From: a virus
Lineage: Duplodnaviria > Heunggongvirae > Uroviricota > Caudoviricetes
Virus record (IMG/VR): IMGVR_UViG_2529292716_000011
Strand: one strand, 5' to 3'
DNA: 48,128 nt
The position numbers were made by a program, and so were the translations under genes. This document shows, one piece after another, positions 2,650 to 48,128 of the stretch; position 1 is the first letter of the stretch, and every line of letters begins with the position of its first letter. The notes below the pieces were generated by a model. That model worked only from the letters and a program-made list of their open reading frames with translations, did no database searches and had not been told where the DNA came from.

Positions 2650-2810
2650 TTTATCAGTTCGCTCCCATCCGTACCAGTCCGCAAAATCCCCTGAATATCA
2701 AGCCTTCCGTATATTCACGGTTCGTCATGGTTCGCGTCAGATCGTTGACAGCCGCACTCCATGACGGGTAAAAAGTGGATAAAATAATTTTACCCACCGG
2801 ATTTTTACCC

Positions 2811-3968
2811 ATGCTCACCGTTAAGCAGATTGAAGCAGCAAAGCCGAAAGAAAAACCATACCGCCTTCTCGATGGTAATGGCCTGTACCTTTATGTTCCT
2901 GTATCCGGGAAAAAGGTATGGCAGCTTCGCTACAAGATTGACGGTAAGGAGAAAATCCTGACCGTCGGAAAATATCCGCTTATGACTTTGCAGGAAGCAA
3001 GGGATAAGGCATGGACTGCGAGGAAAGACATCTCGGTTGGCATCGTTCCGGTAAAGGCGAAAAAGGCTTCGTCTAACAACAATTCATTTAGTGCGATTTA
3101 CAAGGAATGGTACGAGCACAAGAAGCAAATCTGGTCAGTAGGCTATGCAACTGAACTTGCCAAAATGTTTGATGACGACATTTTACCCATCATCGGCGGT
3201 CTTGAGATTCAGGATATTGAGCCGATGCAACTGCTGGAAGTAATCCGCAGATTTGAAGATCGCGGTGCAATGGAGCGAGCCAACAAAGCCCGCAGAAGAT
3301 GCGGCGAGGTTTTTCGTTACGCTATTGTCACCGGAAGGGCTAAATATAACCCGGCACCTGACCTTGCAGACGCCATGAAAGGATACCGCAAGAAGAACTT
3401 CCCGTTCCTTCCAGCAGACCAGATGCCTGCATTCAACAAAGCACTGGCAACATTTTCAGGAAGTATCGTATCGCTCATTGCGACCAAAGTTTTACGCTAC
3501 ACAGCCCTAAGAACAAAAGAGCTTCGTTCCATGCTATGGAAGAACGTCGATTTTGAAAACAGGATTATCACCATCGACGCCAGTGTGATGAAGGGACGCA
3601 AAATTCATGTGGTCCCGATGTCAGACCAGGTGGTTGAACTTCTCACTACGCTAAGCTCAATCACCAAACCAGTCTCAGAGTTTGTTTTTGCCGGGCGCAA
3701 CGATAAGAAGAAGCCAATCTGCGAGAACGCGGTATTGCTTGTGATCAAACAAATCGGCTATGAAGGTCTGGAAAGCGGTCACGGATTCAGGCATGAATTC
3801 AGCACGATTATGAACGAGCACGAATGGCCTGCTGACGCTATTGAAGTGCAGCTGGCACATGCCAACGGCGGATCTGTGCGCGGTATTTACAACCATGCTC
3901 AGTATCTCGATAAGCGCAGAGAAATGATGCAGTGGTGGGCGGATTGGCTTGATGAAAAAGTGGAGTAA
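2811..3968 (+). CDS. intS: P4-type tyrosine integrase (IntS-like)
   Basis: Integrase translation immediately downstream of the tRNA 3' end; start chosen at ATG 2811 (MLTVKQIEAAK, 385 aa); the ORF track's upstream start 2775 gives 397 aa. Confidence 0.85.
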   Translation: MLTVKQIEAAKPKEKPYRLLDGNGLYLYVPVSGKKVWQLRYKIDGKEKILTVGKYPLMTLQEARDKAWTARKDISVGIVPVKAKKASSNNNSFSAIYKEWYEHKKQIWSVGYATELAKMFDDDILPIIGGLEIQDIEPMQLLEVIRRFEDRGAMERANKARRRCGEVFRYAIVTGRAKYNPAPDLADAMKGYRKKNFPFLPADQMPAFNKALATFSGSIVSLIATKVLRYTALRTKELRSMLWKNVDFENRIITIDASVMKGRKIHVVPMSDQVVELLTTLSSITKPVSEFVFAGRNDKKKPICENAVLLVIKQIGYEGLESGHGFRHEFSTIMNEHEWPADAIEVQLAHANGGSVRGIYNHAQYLDKRREMMQWWADWLDEKVE

Positions 3969-5414: not shown

Positions 5415-5444
5415 ATCATCCACCCAATTGGTAATGACTCCAAC

Positions 5445-5948
5445 TTATTGATAGTGTTTTATGTTCAGATAATGCCCGATGACTTTGTCATGCAGCTCCA
5501 CCGATTTTGAGAACGACAGCGACTTCCGTCCCAGCCGTGCCAGGTGCTGCCTCAGATTCAGGTTATGCCGCTCAATTCGCTGCGTATATCGCTTGCTGAT
5601 TACGTGCAGCTTTCCCTTCAGGCGGGATTCATACAGCGGCCAGCCATCCGTCATCCATATCACCACGTCAAAGGGTGACAGCAGGCTCATAAGACGCCCC
5701 AGCGTCGCCATAGTGCGTTCACCGAATACGTGCGCAACAACCGTCTTCCGGAGACTGTCATACGCGTAAAACAGCCAGCGCTGGCGCGATTTAGCCCCGA
5801 CATAGCCCCACTGTTCGTCCATTTCCGCGCAGACGATGACGTCACTGCCCGGCTGTATGCGCGAGGTTACCGACTGCGGCCTGAGTTTTTTAAGTGACGT
5901 AAAATCGTGTTGAGGCCAACGCCCATAATGCGTGCAGTTGCCCGGCAT
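5445..5948 (-). CDS. insB: IS1 InsB frame (expressed as InsAB' by -1 frameshift)
   Basis: 167-aa ORF; A6C slippery motif present upstream. Confidence 0.9.
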
Positions 5949-6142
5949 CCAACGCCATTCATGGCCATATCAATGATTTTCTGGTGCGTACCGGGTTGAG
6001 AAGCGGTGTAAGTGAACTGCAGTTGCCATGTTTTACGGCAGTGAGAGCAGAGATAGCGCTGATGTCCGGCAGTGCTTTTGCCGTTACGCACCACCCCGTC
6101 AGTAGCTGAACAGGAGGGACAGCTGATAGAAACAGAAGCCAC
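5867..6142 (-). CDS. insA: IS1 InsA
   Basis: 91 aa, [16 protein letters not shown]...; zinc-finger/HTH protein of IS1. Confidence 0.92.
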
Positions 6143-6946
6143 TGGAGCACCTCAAAAACACCATCATACACTAAATCAGTAAGTTGGCAGCATCACCAGC
6201 CTTCTTGAGGCTACCACCTGTTTTCAGGTGTCATTCAGACGTGATTTGCCCCAGATTGGGAAAGCACGCTTTTTTCTCAGCTATCGTCCTCTTATTTTGC
6301 CGTTACATTTCTTTTTGCATTCTAATGATTAATTTACAATAATAATATCGGTAATTATTGAGTAATAATAAATTAATTATTGCAAATGTAATTTAATTCC
6401 ATCTTCGCGTTATATTCCAATCTTTAATCTCCGCATGGAACAAGTTGCATGCGTGACTATATTAAGACGACTTATAACCACCAAAACATTTGCTTTGCAA
6501 GCAAAAACAGTGACCATTGACTCTAAGAAAATTCCGATCTATTGTTAGGGTCATCAAAGTTACTTAACAGTATTCCGAAATGAAAATACAAAGCAAGCTA
6601 ATTGTCTTATTAAACATTATTATTGCATTTATATTATTTGAGCTTTTAGCTCAAAAATTTGGTTTGAGTACATTATTTTAAAGCAAGATAAACAATATCG
6701 GGCACTCTAGTTTTTATAATTAACAATTAAACGTCCATAAAATGTTATTTACTTTTCTTCGCTATTGTCATATCTTAATATAGTGGCTTACGCCACTCTA
6801 CTTTCATCACATTTTGTACGTTTATGTACTCGCCATGAAGCTCTTTCATGGCGATTTTTTATTCTTAATCCAAGAACATACTCCCTACCTATAGCAAAAT
6901 CACTTTTTTAACAAAAGAATAACGTATTTAGGTAATCATTACGAAT

Positions 6947-7528
6947 TTACCCTATAGGTGCTACTGGCCATTCAATATCCGGTGCAGTTGATGTATCAAC
7001 ACGGTTCAGCAACACCCGATACTTTTTCCAAGCTTCCAGCAACAAGGTTTCTTTCTCCGTTGCGATCTCCAGATCCACAGCATCCTGAAGCGGCGCTATA
7101 TGCTCACTGGCTACCTGCATCAGGCTGTTTTTTGTTTCTTCCGCCTCCCGGATCCGGAACAGTTTTTCTGCTTCCGTATCCTTCACCCAGGCTGTGCCGT
7201 TCCACTTCTGAAACTCCCCTTCCGGGGATAACCAGGTGACATTTTCCGGTAATGAGCCGAGTTCAGAAATAAATAACGCGTCGCCGGAAGCCACGTCATA
7301 AACCGTTTTACCCCGATGATCTTCAACGAGATGCCACGATGACTCATCACTGTTGAAAACAGCCACGAAACCAGCCGGAATATCTGGCGGTGCAATATCG
7401 GTACTGTTTGCAGGCAGACCTGTATGAGGCGGAATATATGCGTCACCTTCACCAATAAATTCATTAGTTCCGGCCAGCAGGTTATAAATTTTTATGGTCC
7501 GTGCTTGTTCACTCATTCTGAATGCCAT
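6947..7528 (-). CDS. tfa: tail fiber assembly protein Tfa
   Basis: 193 aa; lambda Tfa-like translation; start overlaps the stf stop. Confidence 0.85.
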
Positions 7529-10500
7529 TATGCGAGCCTCACAATATAGTTAAATGCGATGTTTTTGACGGTGTTTTCCGCGTTACCAGCAGCGTTAACG
7601 GTGATGGTGTGTCCATGTGAACCAATCGCAACAGAGTGCGTATGAGCACCAATACCGACAGTATGCGCGTGTGCACCCGCAGATGCTGCTGTGCCGGACA
7701 GTGAGTGTGTATGGTTTCCTTCTGAAGATGATTTACCTACCCATTGGGAGGTGCCACTGGTTAATGAGCCACTGATACCAACCTGATTAGTCCCGCTAAC
7801 TTGAGTACTCCCTGCCGGAAACATTCCAGTAGGTTGACTCCCGCTATTCGTTCTGGGCCCAGTCTGACTATGTTGGTGGGCCCCAGCTGAACTTGTAGAG
7901 CCGCTCAGACTGTGCGTATGCGCCCCGGTGTTATTCGTGGATTTAGTGCCGTAATCAAACGACGATGTGGTTTTCGTCCCCAAATCCGTACTGGATGCGC
8001 TGGCGCTGTGGGTGTGCGATTTAATGCCATCCTGTTCCTGAGACAATACGGCACGACCACTGGCGGGCTTGCCCTTAATCGTCCAGCCACGCATATCAGG
8101 GATCACGCCTGACGGATAAGCGGCTGCAAGTTTCGGGTAAGCAGATTTGTCAAAAGTCTGCCCCTGCATCAGGGCATAACCAGACGGAACGGTATCTGAT
8201 GGCCACGGGATTGGTGCACCGACTGGATAAAACTCTGCAGGAGGATGAGCCGAGGTGTAAAGCTGCGCCCACGGCGACCAGTTTGCGTCGGTCGTATCCC
8301 GTCGTGAACGAATAAATGCCGGAGCATGAGCACCGCTTGTACCACTCCAGCCGATGAGTAACTCACCTTCGCCAACGGCTGTCATCCCTTTCAGGTGAAT
8401 GATATTTCCATACGCTGTTGGATATCCGTTGTTATACACCTCGTATAACTCAAGACCTGCTGCCCCCTGCGTATTGTCTGTCAGCGCGGCTACCCGACCT
8501 TTTGAAGCCAGATTAACTGATGATACTGCTGTTCCACCTGACGGTAGCGCCCCGATCTCTGATGCCGTTGGCTTATTTCTGGAGTTATAGTCCCTTCGCC
8601 AGCCAGGTGAATAATCTGTTCCGTGATTAATATAGGTAAACTGGGCGTTGGTTGTTCCGCCACCGCTGGATGTGGTCGGAGTGGTAATGCGGATCGTCAT
8701 CGCTGACTTTATCCCCATTACTTCAATGACAGCTCCGGCGAGATGAATATTACCGCAGCCAGTATCAGTAATGATTTTATTATTGCCATAAGACCAGGAA
8801 CCCTTGCACATCCAGTATGGATGGTTAAATGCTCCCTGAGAATCCAGCCACTCGATAAACTGTGCAGTCGTCCAGTTTCCTGTTGTTGTGCTTACTGACC
8901 CACCGAAGGCACGGCAGGCACCAATATTTTTCGTAAAGGTGTCTTTGCCAGGGATATCCGCACCGTTCTGATCTTTCTGCAGACGTTTCTCAGCATTGTC
9001 ATTGGCTGCTTTTACTGCCTTTGGCGTTGCCGCCAGCGTTTCAGACGTGCTGTTGGTCGCGCTGCTTAGCTGGATTATCCCTTTCTGTGCTGTCGTTGCA
9101 TCCTGTGCGGTGTATTTCCCGTTAGCCAGGTCATACGCGGCCTTAACGGCTTTTGGTGTTGCCGCCAGTGACTCGGAAGTGCTGTTAGTCGCACTACTGA
9201 GCTGTACTATCCCCTTTTTCGTCGTGCTCGCATCCTCAAGCGCCACGGCGGATGCAATATCCTCTGCCCGTTTTGCCGCTGTCTCAGCGCGCGTTGCTGC
9301 AGATTCCGCCGTACTTTTGCTCTGAGCTGCTGCCGTCGCACTACCAGCAGCCTCTGTCGCCTTCGTGGATGCCGTCGTGGCGCTGCCCTTCGCTGCTGAC
9401 GCCTGTCTGGTCGCCTCATCTTTTGAAGCAGACGCCGATGATGCCGATGACGCCGCCGAACTGGCGGACGATGCGGCAGCCGTTTTTGAGGATTCTGCAC
9501 GGGTTTCCGACGCTTTCGCGTTCGTTTCGGATGTCTTCGCTGCGGAAGCTGACCTCGCTGCTGCCGTGGCCTGCTCAGTGGCTTCGCCAGCCTTCGTTGT
9601 GGCTGTTGAAGCGGATGATGCGGCGCTTTCTGCCGATTTTCCGGCGGCGGTGGCACTGGCTGAGGCCTGCCCGGCACTTGTTGACGCGGCGCTGGCAGAC
9701 GACGCAGCCGCTGTTTTTGAGCCTGCCGCAGCTGAGGCACTCTGTCCCGCTGCCGTTTCAGAAGACCTGGCGTTCGTCTCGGACGTTTTGGCCGCCTTCG
9801 CAGAATTTGCAGCCGCCGTCGCCGAGGAAGCTGCGCTACTGGCGCTTGATGATGCGTTCGTTTCTGATGATTTTGCCGCCTCTTTTGAAGCCGACGCATC
9901 CCGGGCTGAGGTGGCAGCTTCTGACGCTTTCGTGGTCGCGGTGGATGCAGAAGTGGCTGCTGATTGTTGTGACGCTGCCGCATTCGTTTCTAACGTTTTC
10001 GCCGCACCGGCACTGGTAGCCGCCGCGCTTTTTGAGGACTCTGCAGCGGCAGCACTTTTTGAGGCTTCAGTGGCCTTTGTTGATGCCGTTCCTGCGCTGG
10101 AAGACGCTGACTGAGCCGACGAAGCGGCCTGTCCGGCTGACGTGCTGGCTGCACGTGCTGAATCTGCAGCATCAGTCGCATGGGTTGCCGCCTCACGGGC
10201 TGATGTGCTGGCATCGCTGGCTGATTTCTTCGCGGCTGCCGTGTTCTGTGCCACCGCGGACGCGTTACGCGCCACCTCTTCCACCATCAGCTCAAAACGG
10301 CGCAGTGCCTCCGGACGGGCATCATCCTCCGTCATGGCACCGAGAAAATCATTCAGCGTACCGGGTCGGGAATCTTCATACACGGTGATGGTCCCGGCAT
10401 GTGACGGCGGGAATCCTTCCACCAACAGAATAACGCTGTACTGACCGTACTCAACGTCCATGCTGTAACGCCCGGCTTCATCCGGATTTTCTGAGGCCAG

Positions 10501-30075: not shown

Positions 30076-30280
30076 TGTTCATTCCACGGACAAAAACAGA
30101 GAAAGGAAACGACAGAGGCCAAAAAAGCCCGTTTTCAGCACCTGTCGTTTCCTTTCTTTTCAGGGGGTGTTTTAAATAAAAACATTAGGTTACGGCGAAG
30201 AAGAACGGAAACGCCTTAAACCGGAAAATTGTCATAAATAGCGAAAACCCGCGCGCCTTCCGCCCCGTAACCTGTCGGAT
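30076..30280. other. cos region (cosB and cosN; cohesive-end 12-mer at 30254-30265)
   Basis: Flanks match the lambda ends (cgcgggttttcgctatttatga... and ...gatccgacaggttacg); the 12-mer reads gggcggaaggcg on the phage top strand instead of gggcggcgacct. Confidence 0.75.
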
Positions 30281-31166: not shown

Positions 31167-31345
31167 ATCATAACGTCCGGTTTCTTCCGTGCCAGAACCG
31201 GACTCGCTGGCATGATGAAATATGTGTACCCGGTAACCCCGGTGTGCATCGTTTTTGATTATTCCCGCACACTCGCGCAGAAGGAGTTCCCCGTCGGGCT
31301 ACGGTCTCTGTTAATACGGGAATACGGCGACGATTGGATTTGCCC

Positions 31346-32251
31346 CTATATTTCCAGACATCTGTTATCACTTAACCCATTACAAGCCCGCTGCCGCAGA
31401 TATTCCCGTGGCGAGCGATAACCCAGCGCACTATGCGGATGCCATTCGTTATAATGCTCGAACGCCTCTGCAAGGTTCTTTGCTGCCGTTAACCCGTCTG
31501 GTTTGGGCATGATACTGATGTAGTCACGCTTTATCGTTTTCACGAAGCTCTCTGCTATTCCGTTACTCTCCGGACTCCGCACCGCCGTGTTCTTCGGTTC
31601 AAGTCCCAACATCCGGGCGAACTGGCGTGTTTCATTAGCCCGGTAGCATGAACCATTATCCGTCAGCCACTCCACTGGAGACGACGGAAGATCGTTGCCG
31701 AAGCGGCGTTCCACCGCTCCCAGCATGACGTCCTGTACTGTTTCACTGTTGAAGCCGCCGGTAGTCACCGCCCAGTGCAGTGCCTCACGATCACAGCAGT
31801 CCAGCGCGAACGTGACACGCAGTCTCTCTCCGTTATCACAGCAGAACTCGAACCCGTCAGAGCACCATCGCTGATTGCTTTCTTTCACGGCCACTCTGCC
31901 TGTATGTGCCCGTTTCGATGGCGGTACAGCAGGTTTTCGCTCAAGCAACAGCGCATTCTGGCGCATGATCCGGTAAACACGTTTGGCATTGATCGCAGGC
32001 ATACCATCAAGTTCTGCCTGTCTGCGAAGCAGCGCCCATACCCGACGATAACCATACGTGGGCAGCTCTCCGATAACATGGTGTATACGGAGAAGCACAT
32101 CCGTATCATCAGTGTGACGACTGCGGCGGCCATCCATCCAGTCATCGGTTCGTCTGAGAATGACGTGCAACTGCGCACGCGACACCCGGAGACAACGGCT
32201 GACTAAGCTTACTCCCCATCCCCGGGCAATAAGGGCGCGTGCGCTATCCAC
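31346..32251 (-). CDS. insD: IS2 transposase InsD
   Basis: 301 aa; DDE transposase. Confidence 0.92.
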
Positions 32252-32574
32252 TTTTTTGCCCGTCCATATTCAACGGCTTCTTTGAGGAGTTCATTTTCCA
32301 TCGTTTTCTTGCCGAGCAGGCGCTGGAGTTCTTTAATCTGCTTCATGGCGGCAGCAAGTTCAGAGGCAGGAACAACCTGTTCTCCGGCGGCCACAGCAGT
32401 AAGACTTCCTTCCTGGTATTGCTTACGCCAGAGAAATAACTGGCTGGCTGCTACACCATGTTGCCGGGCAACGAGGGAGACCGTCATCCCCGGTTCAAAG
32501 CTCTGCTGAACAATTGCGATCTTTTCCTGTGTGGTACGCCGTCTGCGTTTCTCCGGCCCTAAGACATCAATCAT
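32209..32574 (-). CDS. insC: IS2 InsC
   Basis: Start at [13 protein letters not shown] (121 aa). Confidence 0.9.
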
Positions 32575-33090
32575 CTGTACTCCAATGACTAGTCTAAAAA
32601 CTAGTATTAAGACTATCACTTATTTAAGTGATACTGGTTGTCTGGAGATTCAGGGGGCCAGTCTAACGATACAGCGCATGATGTGTCAGGCTTGAATACC
32701 TTTATCCTTTAAAAGGGATATCAGTTAAGTTATCCCGTGTAGGGTATAAGCCATTATCAAAGCCACTCTGTAGGGAATGGCTTTTGTGATGGCATCACTT
32801 ACTCTTTACGCTGCTATCCCACTCATCCCGGAATTTTGATGGGTTATTGAAACCTTCTGCTGACATAACAACTCCTTCAATGTTTGGCTGAAATTGGGAT
32901 GTCTTTCCATCAGTCCGCCACCACAAAGAATCTTTTTTGCCATAAGGCAGGAGGTTCATCTTTCAGTGGCTGCCGGTGTTATTTCCCCACTTACTGGCTT
33001 GGGTTGTTTCGTGGTACTGCCGTTAACTGGTGGCCCAGAATAAATTCCGGTTTCATTATCAAGCCCACCCGTAAATGGGCTTTGTAATGG

Positions 33091-34043: not shown

Positions 34044-34502
34044 TTATTTCAGGCATTGCGTCCTGATGTATTCCTGCAGGTAGTTAACCTGCGCGGTTAT
34101 CTTGTCGATTCCACTTCGGAGACGGTAATAATTGAGTTCAGCATCTGCTGTAAGTCCTGGGCTTTCTCCATCGCCCATGCCGCTGGCTCCGGTCGTTGAC
34201 TTTGCACAGGTGGCGGCGACTTGCAGGCGCTTACGCCCAGCAGAAACATCAGCACGGAGACTTTCGATAGTCGCGTTAGCATCAGCAAGCTCCTTTATGT
34301 ATCTTGCGTCGAGTTCTGCTACATCACGTTGACGCTTCCGCATGTCAGCGATGGTGGCGTTCGCCTTCTCCAGTTCACTGGCCTTGTTATCGCGCTGCTC
34401 TTTGTAGGCGATTGCGTTATCACGGTAATGATTAACAGCCAATGACAGGCAGACGATGATGCAGATAACCAGAGCGGAGATAATCGCGGTTACTCTGCTC
34501 AT
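34044..34502 (-). CDS. Rz: i-spanin Rz
   Basis: Start at [17 protein letters not shown] (ORF track start 34514); start overlaps the R stop. Confidence 0.88.
34097..34288 (-). CDS. Rz1: o-spanin Rz1 (lipoprotein embedded in Rz in another frame)
   Basis: 63 aa; signal with lipobox LGVSAC; proline-rich mature region. Confidence 0.8.
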
Positions 34503-34996
34503 TGTTTCCCCCACAAACAGACTTCACGCTCAATCTCACGGCGAGTCATCAGTCCTTTCCATTGATTACCGCCAGCGTATGTCCAGCGCCGTAGCTGATC
34601 ACATGCGCCTTTAATATCACCCTGGTTTATTTTGCGAAGAAGCGTCGATGTTCTGAAATTGCCAGCACCCACGTTGTAGACGAACGAGTAAAGAGCGCAG
34701 CGCGTTGTTTCCGGTATATCGACTTTGATGTACGGGTTAATTTGTCTGGCGACAGTGGCAAGGTCTTTATTCAGGAGGGCTTTGCACTCTGCTTCGGTAT
34801 ACGTTTTACCGGGAATGATGTCTTTTCCTGTATGCCCGTAACATACAGTCCATACACCAACTATGTCTTTGTAAGGATTATGTCTCACACCTTCCAGACC
34901 ATCGTTACCACCTGGGCCAGTGATTAACACAGATGCTATAGCAATAGCCCCGCCACCAATAGCAGCAGCAACAGCTTTTCGTAATGATGGAGGCAT
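34499..34996 (-). CDS. R: SAR endolysin (phage-21-type lysozyme R)
   Basis: 165 aa; N-terminal signal-anchor-release segment ([19 protein letters not shown]) followed by a T4-lysozyme-like domain. Confidence 0.9.
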
Positions 34997-35211
34997 TATC
35001 CACCTCTCGCAGCCTTGCGCTTATCTTCTTTAATCTTGAAATAAAGGTTTGTCAGGTACGTCAGCAGGCCAAATACCAGGCTACCCAGCACTCCAATTGC
35101 CGCCCACTGTGAGGGCGTGACTTTATCTAGCAGCTGTAAAAACCAGTACCCGGCACTACCTGCTGAGGTGCCATAGGCGACACCCGTTGTTAACTTATCC
35201 ATGGATTTCAT
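34996..35211 (-). CDS. S: pinholin S (phage-21 S-like)
   Basis: 71 aa; two TM segments and a charged C-terminus. Confidence 0.9.
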
Positions 35212-35401
35212 AACCCCACCTCGCAGACAAAGCGGGTGTAAATTGAGGGAATACTACGAAACGTAACAGACTCGGAGTCAGTGAATAACTCAGGTATTGG
35301 GTTATCAGCTAATATCGAGACTCAAAAAATGGAAAAACCCGCTCGACGGCGGGTTTAAGCTGTGTGACGAAGTAACCACTCTTAACAGCATAACCAATTT
35401 T

Positions 35402-36168
35402 GGTGATGCTGCCAACTTACTGATTTAGTGTATGATGGTGTTTTTGAGGTGCTCCAGTGGCTTCTGTTTCTATCAGCTGTCCCTCCTGTTCAGCTACTGA
35501 CGGGGTGGTGCGTAACGGCAAAAGCACTGCCGGACATCAGCGCTATCTCTGCTCTCACTGCCGTAAAACATGGCAACTGCAGTTCACTTACACCGCTTCT
35601 CAACCCGGTACGCACCAGAAAATCATTGATATGGCCATGAATGGCGTTGGATGCCGGGCAACAGCGCGCATTATGGGCGTTGGCCTCAACACGATTTTAC
35701 GTCACTTAAAAACTCAGGCCGCAGTCGGTAACCTCGCGCATACAGCCGGGCAGTGACGTCATCGTCTGCGCGGAAATGGACGAACAGTGGGGCTATGTCG
35801 GGGCTAAATCGCGCCAGCGCTGGCTGTTTTACGCGTATGACAGTCTCCGGAAGACGGTTGTTGCGCACGTATTCGGTGAACGCACTATGGCGACGCTGGG
35901 GCGTCTTATGAGCCTGCTGTCACCCTTTGACGTGGTGATATGGATGACGGATGGCTGGCCGCTGTATGAATCCCGCCTGAAGGGAAAGCTGCACGTAATC
36001 AGCAAGCGATATACGCAGCGAATTGAGCGGCATAACCTGAATCTGAGGCAGCACCTGGCACGGCTGGGACGGAAGTCGCTGTCGTTCTCAAAATCGGTGG
36101 AGCTGCATGACAAAGTCATCGGGCATTATCTGAACATAAAACACTATCAATAAGTTGGAGTCATTACC
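35402..36168 (+). mobile_element. IS1 copy 2 (767 bp) with 8-bp target duplication CCAATTTT; one A missing from the frameshift A-run
   Basis: Terminal repeats present; CCAATTTT at 35394-35401 and 36169-36176; slippery run is A5C where copies 1, 3 and 4 have A6C, so insA reads on to 99 aa. Confidence 0.93.
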
Positions 36169-36558
36169 CCAATTTTTTACGTACGTAAACCACTAAATGA
36201 TATTTGCGAGAATGCTACCGAGTATTGAAAACACCACTACAAATACATAAGCAAATCCCAACAAATAACCAACAAATAATTTCCAGTGTTATTTTTAGCC
36301 GGTTTAAATTGAACCTTCAAATTATAGAGCACTTATAAATAACAGCCGTTAATATAAATTGGCTAATAGATTTATTTTTATTCAGTCAAGAGCCATGAAT
36401 AGGATTCGATAGAAAAAAGTTCAGATAAAAATAGAGATCTACTTCACAAATCAAACGAGAAACCAAAACTTACATCTTGAAATAATCACATTGATTAGAT
36501 GAATATTTATCGCGCAATGACATCATTTTTTAATAATAGTTCAAAAAAAGGGCTCACG

Positions 36559-37641
36559 ATGAAAAAATTAACAGTGGCAATTTCTGCTGTAGCTGCATCA
36601 GTACTGATGGCGATGTCTGCTCAGGCAGCTGAAATTTATAATAAAGACAGTAACAAGCTGGATCTGTACGGGAAAGTTAATGCTAAGCACTACTTCTCCT
36701 CTAATGATGCAGATGATGGTGATACTACTTATGCCCGTCTTGGCTTCAAAGGTGAAACCCAAATCAACGATCAACTGACTGGTTTCGGTCAGTGGGAATA
36801 TGAATTCAAAGGCAACCGCGCTGAATCTCAAGGTTCCTCCAAAGATAAAACCCGTCTTGCCTTCGCTGGCCTGAAATTCGGTGACTACGGCTCCATCGAT
36901 TACGGCCGTAACTACGGTGTAGCATACGACATCGGTGCGTGGACTGACGTCCTGCCAGAATTCGGTGGTGACACTTGGACTCAAACAGATGTGTTCATGA
37001 CTGGTCGCACCACTGGTGTTGCAACTTATCGTAACAACGACTTCTTTGGTCTGGTTGATGGTCTGAACTTTGCTGCTCAGTATCAGGGTAAAAATGACCG
37101 CACTGACGTAACTGAAGCTAATGGTGATGGTTTCGGTTTCTCCACTACTTATGAGTATGAAGGATTCGGTGTAGGTGCAACCTATGCTAAATCTGACCGC
37201 ACTAATAATCAGGTTATCTACGGTAACAACAGCCTGAATGCATCTGGTCAAAATGCTGAAGTATGGGCAGCTGGTCTGAAATATGATGCGAACAACATCT
37301 ATCTGGCTACCACCTATTCTGAAACCCAGAACATGACTGTTTTTGGTAATAACCATATTGCCAACAAAGCACAAAACTTCGAAGTAGTTGCACAATATCA
37401 GTTCGACTTCGGTCTGCGTCCGTCCGTTGCTTACCTGCAATCTAAAGGAAAAGACTTGGGTGCGTGGGGTGATCAGGACCTGGTTGAATATATTGATGTA
37501 GGTGCAACCTATTACTTCAACAAAAATATGTCCACTTTTGTTGATTACAAAATCAACCTGATTGATAAGAGCGATTTCACGAAAGCATCTGGCGTTGCTA
37601 CCGATGATATCGTTGCTGTAGGTATGGTTTACCAGTTCTAA
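36559..37641 (+). CDS. nmpC: outer-membrane general porin (NmpC/OmpD-like), intact
   Basis: Start at [23 protein letters not shown]; porin translation with C-terminal aromatic residue; sits between Q and the lysis cassette on the opposite strand as in DLP12. Confidence 0.85.
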
Positions 37642-37829: not shown

Positions 37830-38228
37830 TTAATTAGAGTTATTAACAACGATATCCATCTCTAACCGGATATCTAATGCCATTAACATCCCTTCAATTA
37901 TGCCCTCAGCCTTCTGTAACCTTTTCCCGATATAACCATCAGAGCAGCAATGCTTACCTGCCAGTGACATGAATGTCATACCGACTACATAATAATCTAC
38001 TAATAAATCGTGCAAATCGCTGTTGTTCTTTTTCAGACGGGCCATGCACCCGCAAATAATCATCGCGTCATCGTCACAACATTGCGGGCGAGATTTTACT
38101 TTTGAAGTAATTAATCCCTTAAAACCGGCGGCAATGGACGACCAGGTCACATCTTCATGATTATTAGCCGCCCACGCTCCCCAACGCTCAAGAACCATCT
38201 GAATATCACGCATCAACTTACTCCACAA
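37830..38228 (-). CDS. Q: late-gene antiterminator Q (phage-82/DLP12 QuuD type)
   Basis: Cys-rich zinc-binding translation ([16 protein letters not shown]); true start may be the internal MRDIQMV. Confidence 0.85.
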
Positions 38229-39967: not shown

Positions 39968-40345
39968 ATGACCAACAAAGAAAACAAAGATAAATATATT
40001 AACAAGTTCAAGAAAGAGCTTTCAAAATATATACAACCAACTGCTGGAGTGGACATTCAATTATTTAACTCTAAGGATGGTGGTGGTGTAATTAAAGCCA
40101 CTTTGAATAGAAGTGGAAAAAGAAAATCATCTATTGCTGGTAATTTTACTAAATTAGGTGAGGCAATTACCTCGAGTGGGCAGAGGGTTTTTGGTGGTGA
40201 TCTATCAAATGTGAATTTTTACGGAACAAATACGATTTTTGATGGAGATACAATATTTTTAATTAAATCACCTGATTCAGAGGAGTGGTCATCACAAAAA
40301 GCTTCCAAAGACGTAGAGGGCATCGTATTTGGAGGGAAAAAATGA
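39968..40345 (+). CDS. hypothetical soluble protein (125 aa), AT-rich
   Basis: Lys-rich; no signal peptide or TM; no family recognised; opposite strand to the nin genes. Confidence 0.55.
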   Translation: MTNKENKDKYINKFKKELSKYIQPTAGVDIQLFNSKDGGGVIKATLNRSGKRKSSIAGNFTKLGEAITSSGQRVFGGDLSNVNFYGTNTIFDGDTIFLIKSPDSEEWSSQKASKDVEGIVFGGKK

Positions 40346-40427: not shown

Positions 40428-40769
40428 GTGTCTGATTATTTGCAGCCAATCCCTCCCAAAAAAGATACACACTGGAGCATGATTTTCATTCCGGTAGCAA
40501 TTTATATACTACTTAATCTTGTATACATTATTGCTCACCCATTATTTCCTGAAAAATATCTAAAAACATCAACATCTATATTTCTATTCATTTCCTTCAT
40601 ATTAAGTGCAATAGTAGCATATTTTGTTTTCCATAAGCATAAATCTGCCACTCTATCCATATGCAGCTTAGTGTTCTTAGTGTTAATTGTAGGTGCTAAC
40701 GTAGGGTTTATCAGTTACAGCGACCTAACACAAAAAGCGACGCAAAAATTAGATAGTTTGTCTAAATAA
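40428..40769 (+). CDS. hypothetical small membrane protein (about 3 TM), AT-rich
   Basis: ORF begins at GTG 40428; a better start is ATG 40479 preceded by GGAG; three hydrophobic helices. Confidence 0.5.
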   Translation: MSDYLQPIPPKKDTHWSMIFIPVAIYILLNLVYIIAHPLFPEKYLKTSTSIFLFISFILSAIVAYFVFHKHKSATLSICSLVFLVLIVGANVGFISYSDLTQKATQKLDSLSK

Positions 40770-41208
40770 TTATGTTGCCATGCGAAGTATGCATGGCTGC
40801 ATGTCTGCCTTCCATTTAAAATGGGCTAAGACCTATAACCCTAAATATTATTCTTTATTATCTTCTTTACCACTTCGGTGATGCTGCCAACTTACTGATT
40901 TAGTGTATGATGGTGTTTTTGAGGTGCTCCAGTGGCTTCTGTTTCTATCAGCTGTCCCTCCTGTTCAGCTACTGACGGGGTGGTGCGTAACGGCAAAAGC
41001 ACTGCCGGACATCAGCGCTATCTCTGCTCTCACTGCCGTAAAACATGGCAACTGCAGTTCACTTACACCGCTTCTCAACCCGGTACGCACCAGAAAATCA
41101 TTGATATTGTCAGCGCCAGTGATATAAGACGGTAATTCGCCATTTGGATTGTCCGCTCCACCCAACATGTTGTTTCCTTAAGGTTCTCACACCAGAAAGG
41201 ACATCAAC

Positions 41209-43178
<1,970 letters not shown>

Positions 43179-43259
43179 CGAAAGTATTTAGCGGGCATGA
43201 AAATGGCAAATAACGGTCAAACATCGTGGCGTTGACAATATGGCCATGAATGGCGTTGG

Positions 43260-43763
43260 ATGCCGGGCAACTGCACGCATTATGGGCGTTGGCCTCAACA
43301 CGATTTTACGTCACTTAAAAAACTCAGGCCGCAGTCGGTAACCTCGCGCATACAGCCGGGCAGTGACGTCATCGTCTGCGCGGAAATGGACGAACAGTGG
43401 GGCTATGTCGGGGCTAAATCGCGCCAGCGCTGGCTGTTTTACGCGTATGACAGTCTCCGGAAGACGGTTGTTGCGCACGTATTCGGTGAACGCACTATGG
43501 CGACGCTGGGGCGTCTTATGAGCCTGCTGTCACCCTTTGACGTGGTGATATGGATGACGGATGGCTGGCCGCTGTATGAATCCCGCCTGAAGGGAAAGCT
43601 GCACGTAATCAGCAAGCGATATACGCAGCGAATTGAGCGGCATAACCTGAATCTGAGGCAGCACCTGACACGGCTGGGACGGAAGTCGCTGTCGTTCTCA
43701 AAATCGGTGGAGCTGCATGACAAAGTCATCGGGCATTATCTGAACATAAAACACTATCAATAA
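43260..43763 (+). CDS. insB: IS1 InsB frame of interrupted copy 3
   Basis: 167 aa, one substitution relative to copy 1. Confidence 0.85.
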
Positions 43764-43911
43764 GTTGGAGTCATTACCCGCTTGCAGTAACGGCGAAAGG
43801 GGCAATGACAGCGCTGCCATGTCGACAAGAACTGGAATAGTGAGAAGTAAACGGCGAAGTCGCTCTTATCTCTAAATAGGACGTGAATTTTTTAACGACA
43901 GGTAGGTAATT

Positions 43912-45159
43912 ATGGCACTGAATATTCCATTCAGAAATGCGTACTATCGTTTTGCATCCAGTTACTCATTTCTCTTTTTTATTTCCTGGTCGCTGTGGTG
44001 GTCGTTATACGCTATTTGGCTGAAAGGACATCTAGGGTTGACAGGGACGGAATTAGGTACACTTTATTCGGTCAACCAGTTTACCAGCATTCTATTTATG
44101 ATGTTCTACGGCATCGTTCAGGATAAACTCGGTCTGAAGAAACCGCTCATCTGGTGTATGAGTTTCATCCTGGTCTTGACCGGACCGTTTATGATTTACG
44201 TTTATGAACCGTTACTGCAAAGCAATTTTTCTGTAGGTCTAATTCTGGGAGCGCTCTTTTTTGGCCTGGGGTATCTGGCGGGATGCGGTTTGCTTGACAG
44301 CTTCACCGAAAAAATGGCGCGAAATTTTCATTTCGAATATGGAACAGCGCGCGCCTGGGGATCTTTTGGCTATGCTATTGGCGCGTTCTTTGCCGGCATA
44401 TTTTTTAGTATCAGTCCCCATATCAACTTCTGGTTGGTCTCGCTATTTGGCGCTGTATTTATGATGATCAACATGTGTTTTAAAGATAAGGATCACCAGT
44501 GCGTAGCGGCGGATGCGGGAGGGGTAAAAAAAGAGGATTTTATCGCAGTTTTCAAGGATCGAAACTTCTGGGTTTTCGTCATATTTATTGTGGGGACGTG
44601 GTCTTTCTATAACATTTTTGATCAACAACTTTTTCCTGTCTTTTATGCAGGTTTATTCGAATCACACGATGTAGGAACGCGCCTGTATGGTTATCTCAAC
44701 TCATTCCAGGTGGTACTCGAAGCGCTATGCATGGCGATTATTCCTTTCTTTGTGAATCGGGTAGGGCCAAAAAATGCATTACTTATCGGTGTTGTGATTA
44801 TGGCGTTGCGTATCCTTTCCTGCGCGCTGTTCGTTAACCCCTGGATTATTTCATTAGTGAAGCTGTTACATGCCATTGAGGTTCCACTTTGTGTCATATC
44901 CGTCTTCAAATACAGCGTGGCAAATTTTGATAAGCGCCTGTCGTCGACGATCTTTCTGATTGGTTTTCAAATTGCCAGTTCGCTTGGGATTGTGCTGCTT
45001 TCAACGCCGACTGGGATACTCTTTGACCACGCAGGCTACCAGACAGTTTTCTTCGCAATTTCGGGTATTGTCTGCCTAATGTTGCTATTTGGCATTTTCT
45101 TCCTGAGTAAAAAACGCGAGCAAATAGTTATGGAAACGCCTGTACCTTCAGCAATATAG
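43912..45159 (+). CDS. cscB: sucrose:proton symporter CscB (oligosaccharide/H+ symporter, LacY family)
   Basis: 415 aa, 12-TM MFS permease; translation recognised as CscB from memory; no cscK/cscA/cscR nearby. Confidence 0.8.
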   Translation: MALNIPFRNAYYRFASSYSFLFFISWSLWWSLYAIWLKGHLGLTGTELGTLYSVNQFTSILFMMFYGIVQDKLGLKKPLIWCMSFILVLTGPFMIYVYEPLLQSNFSVGLILGALFFGLGYLAGCGLLDSFTEKMARNFHFEYGTARAWGSFGYAIGAFFAGIFFSISPHINFWLVSLFGAVFMMINMCFKDKDHQCVAADAGGVKKEDFIAVFKDRNFWVFVIFIVGTWSFYNIFDQQLFPVFYAGLFESHDVGTRLYGYLNSFQVVLEALCMAIIPFFVNRVGPKNALLIGVVIMALRILSCALFVNPWIISLVKLLHAIEVPLCVISVFKYSVANFDKRLSSTIFLIGFQIASSLGIVLLSTPTGILFDHAGYQTVFFAISGIVCLMLLFGIFFLSKKREQIVMETPVPSAI

Positions 45160-47415: not shown

Positions 47416-48128
47416 GGTAATGACTCCAACTTATTGATAGTGTTTTATGTTCAGATAATGCCCGATGACTTTGTCATGCAGCTCCACCGATTTTGAGAAC
47501 GACAGCGACTTCCGTCCCAGCCGTGCCAGGTGCTGCCTCAGATTCAGGTTATGCCGCTCAATTCGCTGCGTATATCGCTTGCTGATTACGTGCAGCTTTC
47601 CCTTCAGGCGGGATTCATACAGCGGCCAGCCATCCGTCATCCATATCACCACGTCAAAGGGTGACAGCAGGCTCATAAGACGCCCCAGCGTCGCCATAGT
47701 GCGTTCACCGAATACGTGCGCAACAACCGTCTTCCGGAGACTGTCATACGCGTAAAACAGCCAGCGCTGGCGCGATTTAGCCCCGACATAGCCCCACTGT
47801 TCGTCCATTTCCGCGCAGACGATGACGTCACTGCCCGGCTGTATGCGCGAGGTTACCGACTGCGGCCTGAGTTTTTTAAGTGACGTAAAATCGTGTTGAG
47901 GCCAACGCCCATAATGCGTGCTGTTGCCCGGCATCCAACGCCATTCATGGCCATATCAATGATTTTCTGGTGCGTACCGGGTTGAGAAGCGGTGTAAGTG
48001 AACTGCAGTTGCCATGTTTTACGGCAGTGAGAGCAGAGATAGCGCTGATGTCCGGCAGTGCTTTTGCCGTTACGCACCACCCCGTCAGTAGCTGAACAGG
48101 AGGGACAGCTGATAGAAACAGAAGCCAC
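47416..48128 (-). mobile_element. IS1 copy 4, cut by the window end
   Basis: End ggtaatgactcc at 47416; insB 47431-47934 and insA 47853-48128 intact; A6C motif intact. Confidence 0.93.

Follow-up and report, generated by a model that had tools for sequence, protein, structure and literature searches.

The second IS1 copy of this DNA raises a question of function. The stretch under analysis, referred to below as the window, is 48,128 nt of viral DNA, and it carries an IS1 copy that is one A short in the run at which the element makes its transposase. IS1 mobility is governed above all by the −1 frameshift at the A6C motif (PMC12428005). We asked whether this copy can still produce a transposase of its own, whether the missing base is truly absent from the DNA, and whether an insertion lying next to phage lysis genes disturbs their expression.

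Anatomy of IS1 copy 2 and its target site

The IS1 copies were located by BLAST and MAFFT alignment of the window with itself, which gave four copies in total. Copy 1 (5430-6197, minus strand) is 768 bp long. Copy 2, the subject of this study (35402-36168, plus strand), has 767 bp, the canonical 768 minus one base. Copy 3 (plus strand) is split into 40877-41107 and 43238-43778, and copy 4 (47416-48128, minus strand) is incomplete and ends at the window edge. Copy 2 shares 99.6-99.7% identity with the other copies, with one gap in the alignment. Its slippery run is TTAAAAAC (A5), compared with TTAAAAAAC (A6) in the three other copies. In the aligned form it reads CACTT-AAAAA-CTCAGG, with the A residues at 35708-35712 and the C at 35713. 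Compared with the other copies of the window and with the orthologous copies, the motif at 35708..35713 (plus strand) is a shortened A5C in place of the canonical A6C. Six A residues are found in copy 1, in the right part of copy 3 and in copy 4. The original prediction that copy 2 has one A fewer than the others is thus borne out, as is its description of the three others as A6, with the correction that an IS21-family element interrupts copy 3 and that the window holds only part of copy 4. Outside the A run, just two differences separate copy 2 from copy 1, at IS positions 262 and 265 (window 35663 and 35666); each is a synonymous change in insA.

Other hallmarks of an IS1 are in place. The left terminal inverted repeat (IRL, 35402..35424, end GGTGATGCTGCCAACTTACTGAT) and the right one (IRR, 36146..36168, end ATCAATAAGTTGGAGTCATTACC), both given on the plus strand, are the same as in the other copies, and copy 2 conforms to the expected length of ~768 bp with ~23-bp imperfect terminal inverted repeats. 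Pfam searches recovered the zinc-ribbon and HTH domains of insA and the downstream DDE frame insB', and the element is flanked by a direct target duplication within the usual 8-9 bp. What copy 2 does not have, according to the alignment and the frame tests, is an A6C motif with insB' in the −1 frame; the motif is A5C. Judged from its sequence, copy 2 descends from IS1, with 99.6% identity and with A6 orthologues in the sister genomes, and is, as written, a defective copy. Compared with consensus IS1 (IS1A/IS1E, E. coli K-12), it is alike in the terminal repeats, the insA domains, the DDE frame of insB' and the 8-bp duplication, but lacks one A, has insB' at +1/−2 rather than −1, and has a replaced InsA tail of 14 aa.

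The flanking sequence preserves the record of the insertion event. The same octamer, CCAATTTT, stands on the left at 35394..35401 and on the right at 36169..36176. The corresponding empty site, ...CATAACCAATTTTTTACGTACG... with a single CCAATTTT, is found in related DLP12-like prophages (our loci L022-L024 and L026-L031); the predicted site is matched exactly in seven of them and with one different flank base in two more. Given the 8-bp duplication and the single octamer in the relatives, copy 2 is a simple insertion, as originally proposed. Copies 1 and 3 have no matching target duplications.

Reading frames at the A5 run and their predicted consequences

Translation, frame tests and Pfam searches define a variant insA ORF at 35457..35756 (plus strand), with a GTG start at 35457 and a product of 99 aa. 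Residues 1-85 of this protein are wild type; after K85 the ordinary ending NSGRSR is replaced by a new 14-aa tail. An altered InsA C-terminus had been predicted and is indeed present, although the figure of 99 aa describes the entire protein and only its last 14 residues are new. The variant retains both DNA-binding domains: PF03811 (Zn_ribbon_InsA, 1.9e-21) covers residues 1-36, and PF12759 (HTH_Tnp_IS1, 5.3e-29) covers residues 43-86 with 44 of 46 profile positions. The catalytic insB' frame, an ATG-bounded ORF of 125 aa at 35776..36153 (plus strand; PF03400, DDE_Tnp_IS1, 7.2e-74), is intact and, beyond the A run, matches copy 1 throughout.

Explicit frame tests placed insB' of copy 2 at +1/−2 relative to insA. 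Reading on in the zero frame gives the 99-aa variant. A −1 slip, the event that joins the two frames in an A6 copy and occurs on ~1.6% of wild-type transcripts (PMC12903888), gives in copy 2 only the ordinary wild-type InsA of 91 aa. The usual −1 route to InsAB' is therefore closed, in agreement with the prediction that insB' cannot be reached by −1 slippage, and since the normal rare slip cannot fuse insB' to insA, copy 2 is predicted to be non-autonomous. The further claim that this copy cannot make its own transposase stands with respect to the −1 route; in the stronger form of no transposase at all it claims more than the sequence shows, because a low-level +1 slip of tRNA-Lys on A-AAA-A, after TTA-AAA, would yield an InsAB' of 231 aa that is one Lys short.

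This raises the alternative that the A5 copy is weakly autonomous and still yields some transposase by +1 or −2 slippage. Judging from the sequence, tRNA-Lys could re-pair perfectly from one AAA to the next on the A5 run. The product of a +1 shift would be intact apart from the one Lys, and a −2 shift restores the exact wild-type InsAB' of 232 aa. The wild-type event is itself infrequent, at the rate given above. However, the context that stimulates +1 shifting is absent, with neither a rare nor a stop codon in the A site and ACU as the next codon, and the structure downstream of the IS1 slippery site has been described as a stimulator of −1, not +1, frameshifting (PMC12428005). We thus regard residual autonomy by this route as very improbable.

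On the preferred reading, that copy 2 as written has lost normal access to insB', ribosomes translating insA would enter the third frame and finish at the 99-aa variant, and the catalytic insB' frame, intact yet out of −1 reach, would give no normal InsAB'. The zinc-finger and HTH region is common to InsA and InsAB', and the A6C motif and the role of InsA as a repressor are established (PMC12428005). Since the 99-aa variant keeps all of the shared residues 1-85, its binding to the IS1 ends and its repressor activity should persist. InsAB' acts in trans on otherwise immobile IS1 copies (PMC12903888). With both inverted repeats intact, and with InsAB' acting in trans when abundant, copy 2 could be moved by the InsAB' of many other IS1 copies. 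The gain of a single A would be expected to restore it. From the frames and domains, then, we infer loss of transposase, retained repressor function and mobilisability in trans.

Engineered slippery-site mutants provide a useful comparison, because they alter the same motif. In mutants where A6C was changed to GA2GA3C, insA and insB' are fused by an added base and transposition rises more than 1000-fold; transposase output is set entirely at the slippery site (PMC12428005). In copy 2 a base has been lost rather than added, which removes access to insB'. The natural equivalent of the engineered fused form is an A7 call in the orthologous copy of one sister genome (CP104423.1), discussed below.

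The A run in sister genomes and public assemblies

Sister loci were found through exact matches to the lysozyme and porin proteins of the window. They are colinear with it at 99.92-99.96% identity over 16.5 kb, and one of the genomes, CP179990, is Shigella sonnei 830292 (PMC12511311), which places the origin of the window in S. sonnei or a very near relative. IS1 occupies the same junctions in nine of nine S. sonnei-type sister loci (L013-L020 and L025). Seven of them have A6 in the orthologous run (L014, L015, L016, L017, L018, L020 and L025). In L013 (CP104423.1, locus 6827-7595) the run is A7 and the gene has been called as a fused protein of 232 aa. In L019 (CP029794.1) the orthologous IS1 is only 464 bp long, a ~304-bp internal deletion having taken the slippery site. 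None of the eight sister assemblies that retain the run has A5. With A6 in seven sisters, A7 in one and the run deleted in one, A5 is private to the present sequence.

Two of these sisters deserve a remark in their own right. The A7 copy of L013, with insA and insB' fused, amounts to a constitutive transposase ORF and, if real, would make the allele hyperactive; alternatively it may be a homopolymer miscall, as other T-run differences of plus or minus one base occur in that assembly at window positions 32252 and 32521. The internal deletion in L019 represents an independent route of decay of the same IS1.

The distribution of the insertion itself appears to extend well beyond the complete genomes. 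The exact lysozyme occurs in 1267 index blocks, and in 1034 of the 1267 the longest contig is only 2-5 kb. One example (L021) is a 3.1-kb contig that spans from IS1 to IS2. Short lysozyme contigs that end in IS1 are, it appears, what a fixed insertion would give in the heavily sequenced S. sonnei population. A 60-nt query over the left junction gave only split hits, and no true match, among 5,426 complete E. coli genomes, and the exact 40-nt junction gave no hits in GTDB representative genomes. The history that we propose is that an ordinary IS1 inserted once, by simple transposition with an 8-bp duplication, into a DLP12-like lambdoid prophage remnant, in the intergenic space that separates its holin gene from the divergent porin gene, that this insertion is now fixed in the S. 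sonnei lineage, and that one A of its A6C run is absent from the present sequence. We consider it quite probable that copy 2 is such a single fixed insertion which, with A5 as written, is a non-autonomous copy that can be mobilised in trans.

Whether A5 exists in the DNA is a separate matter, and the earlier advice to exclude a read error was well founded, given that the eight sister assemblies that keep the run have A6 (seven) or A7 (one) and never A5. We scored private differences over 16.5 kb against seven sister loci and found four. The first is an added A at 30121, in an intergenic run that lies ~45 bp ahead of the terminase gene Nu1 and is A6 here and A5 in seven of seven sister loci; the second is a synonymous SNP in IS2 at 32392; the third and fourth are the SNP at 35666 and the missing A at 35708. 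The 35663 difference is shared with L020 only. The A run lies 42-45 bp from 35666 and 35663, and so three differences from most orthologues fall within 46 bp of a high-copy repeat. All changes private to the window lie in repeats (IS1, IS2) or in homopolymers. Apart from the missing A at 35708, 39 kb contain one private indel, the added A at 30121, and it too lies in a homopolymer.

This pattern fits a consensus or polishing error inside a multi-copy repeat, with the real element being a normal A6 IS1, and we lean, without much assurance, towards that explanation. Calls that are off by one base do turn up at this site among deposited S. sonnei assemblies, as the A7 of CP104423.1 illustrates, and the differences between the sisters over the 16.5 kb are mostly homopolymer indels. 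Unique flanking sequence is also no closer than ~306 nt to the A run, a depth at which polishing with short reads is presumably weakest. Set against this, the window is otherwise clean. The 22.5 kb of head and tail genes contain no private indel relative to four sister contigs and have all their long ORFs intact, which indicates that the assembly is good in unique sequence. A generally error-ridden assembly was accordingly rejected as a description of the unique sequence. Furthermore, among real spontaneous frameshifts the commonest is likewise the loss of a single base from a homopolymer, and the host exerts no selection for IS copies to remain active. That A5 is truly in the DNA, as a very recent homopolymer slip, is nearly as likely as the error.

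The same lesion is widespread in public assemblies. More than 450 contigs carry the exact 99-aa InsA variant, which is found at many loci and with several IS1 haplotypes. In complete E. coli genomes, at least 125 of the 9166 records with an IS1 contain the A5 motif and 14 records contain A7; A5 also occurs in at least 141 plasmids. RefSeq labels A5 IS1 copies as 'frameshifted' pseudogenes. Examples with the same A5C lesion and the same 99-aa InsA as copy 2 are the IS1 of pAA-EA11 in E. coli O104:H4 2011C-3493 (NC_018666.1) and a 'frameshifted' IS1 of E. coli G5 (NZ_CP060065.1). These RefSeq copies are at other loci and carry haplotypes TC, AC and CC, compared with AG in copy 2; neither the genomes nor the plasmids of E. 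coli contained a 100% match to the combination of AG with A5. We considered a single spreading A5 lineage and rejected it on the basis of these haplotypes and loci, which indicate independent events.

Two of the eight A7 records listed, SCU-308 (NZ_CP053281.1) and E138 (NZ_AP022351.1), are also on the A5 list. Such co-occurrence in the same E. coli assemblies is far above chance expectation, and several assemblies with many A5 copies contain many broken genes (L005-L007). On both counts much of the A-run variation in databases looks like assembly noise, with real slippage also possible, and both add weight to an error in the present sequence. A bolder reading would treat A5, A6 and A7 as states of a reversible switch, with A5 copies retained as repressor donors that make InsA alone, mobilisable in trans and revertible by slippage, in genomes rich in IS elements like that of Shigella. 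If true, A5 copies would damp transposition of the whole IS1 population. Since the A5 copies arose on independent backgrounds and cluster in noisy assemblies, they lend this idea no specific support, and we think it highly unlikely.

Copy 2 is an ordinary dead or mis-called IS1 copy of an already-known kind that is common in databases, and not a new feature. If the deletion is real, it adds one more non-autonomous IS1 to the hundreds per Shigella genome, in a state that annotation already flags as 'frameshifted'; if it is an artefact, the lesson concerns assembly quality. The slippery run lies ~300 nt inside a high-copy repeat, where miscalls escape polishing, and counts of active and dead IS1 copies based on assemblies should therefore be treated with care.

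Position of the insertion in the late region of a prophage remnant

Gene order confirms that copy 2 lies between the Q gene and porin gene on one side and the lysis cassette on the other. The antiterminator Q gene (37830..38213, minus strand) encodes a QuuD-like protein of 127 aa, identified by PF06530 (4e-53) and by sister annotation. The porin gene (36559..37641, plus strand; PF00267) encodes an OmpC/NmpC-like protein of 360 aa, is divergent from the lysis genes and is crossed antisense by late transcription. Beyond copy 2 follow, all on the minus strand, the first lysis gene, an ORF for an EssD-like holin of 71 aa (34996..35211; PF04971 in sister loci, essD in E. coli relatives), whose start is 190 bp from the left end of copy 2; an ORF for an RrrD-like lysozyme of 165 aa (34499..34996; PF00959); and an ORF for an Rz-like spanin (34044..34514; PF03245) with an embedded Rz1-like ORF at 34097-34288. 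Downstream of the lysis genes are a KilA-N gene, IS2, Nu1, A, W, the portal gene and a complete lambda-like head/tail module to ~6950. A Q-family gene (PF06530) upstream of the lysis cassette, with all of these genes co-oriented on the minus strand, is the arrangement of a lambdoid late operon. As candidates for a pR' promoter with its Q-utilisation site and terminator, the sequence after Q and ahead of the holin gene offered hairpins and pattern matches only.

The closest known counterpart is DLP12 of E. coli K-12 and B, whose genes quuD, nmpC, essD, rrrD and rzpD have the same order and orientation at ~95% identity. In REL606 and BL21, DLP12 carries an IS1 inside the porin gene, so an IS near the porin is a shared trait; in the window, by contrast, the IS1 leaves the porin gene whole and occupies intergenic sequence, 190 bp ahead of the holin start.

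The original prediction further held that copy 2, lying in the path of late transcription, may uncouple lysis from Q. Late transcripts that start at Q (38213-37830) would indeed pass the insertion before they reach the holin gene (35211), with the correction that the late operon runs on the minus strand and crosses IS1 antisense. IS1 insertions are classically polar, which would favour a block to late transcription. The junction also creates a hybrid promoter-like site aimed at the holin gene, with a −35 element TTGGCA in the IRL at 35415 and a −10 element TATGCT in the flank, ending at 35387, which could allow a bypass of Q. Several observations argue against both effects. RNA polymerase modified by Q overrides intrinsic and Rho-dependent terminators, and does so over long distances. 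A consensus scan detected a native terminator-like hairpin with a T run at 35335..35356 (minus strand; a pattern match only), which separates the IS1 site from the holin gene. Expression of the holin would thus have needed antitermination before the insertion occurred, and the same hairpin would also stop transcripts from the weak hybrid promoter-like site. The region as a whole has five promoter-like hits, with 6.5 expected in shuffled sequence. The insertion is also old and fixed in the lineage, in all S. sonnei-type sisters examined and apparently in more than 1000 short-read assemblies.

The last argument comes from the prophage itself, which is a rearranged remnant. From ninE/ybcN to copy 3 we found no ORFs for N, cI/cro, O or P, the lambdoid early functions that would normally drive Q; the two ORFs in this interval (39968-40345 and 40428-40769) had no informative Pfam match. 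In a remnant without an early region the coupling of lysis to Q was probably already moot. With a lineage-fixed insertion, a pre-existing native hairpin and no early region, the uncoupling claim is not supported; we judge it improbable that IS1 blocks or bypasses Q-dependent transcription of the holin-lysozyme-Rz cassette, and in such a remnant we see no evident effect of an IS1 placed ahead of the lysis genes.

The boundaries of the remnant involve two further IS1 copies. Copies 1 and 3 bound it in inverted orientation and without target duplications. On the left are copy 1, a P4-type integrase gene (2775-3968) and tRNA-Arg(CCT) (2575-2649); on the right, copy 3 lies beyond ninE/ybcN and is followed directly by lacY (43912-45159). 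The inverted bounding copies, the presence of late genes only and the joins to lacY and to the integrase and tRNA genes together point to IS1-mediated deletion or inversion. Copy 3 is itself interrupted: after IS position 231 it carries an IS21-family element of 2130 bp (41108-43237) with a 4-bp ATAT duplication and IstA-like (41209-42381) and IstB-like (42378-43178) ORFs. Its insA is thereby destroyed, though its A6C motif is intact.

An IS2 element (~31340-32670, minus strand), with InsC- and InsD-like ORFs at 32209-32619 and 31346-32251, separates the KilA-N gene from Nu1. It too lies on the late path, between the lysis and morphogenesis genes, and is common to the sister genomes. The head/tail module (7150-29740, terminase to tail fibre) has long ORFs that are all intact and near-invariant among sister contigs, and the exact tape-measure protein occurs in 6744 index blocks, a degree of conservation that stands out in a remnant without an early region.
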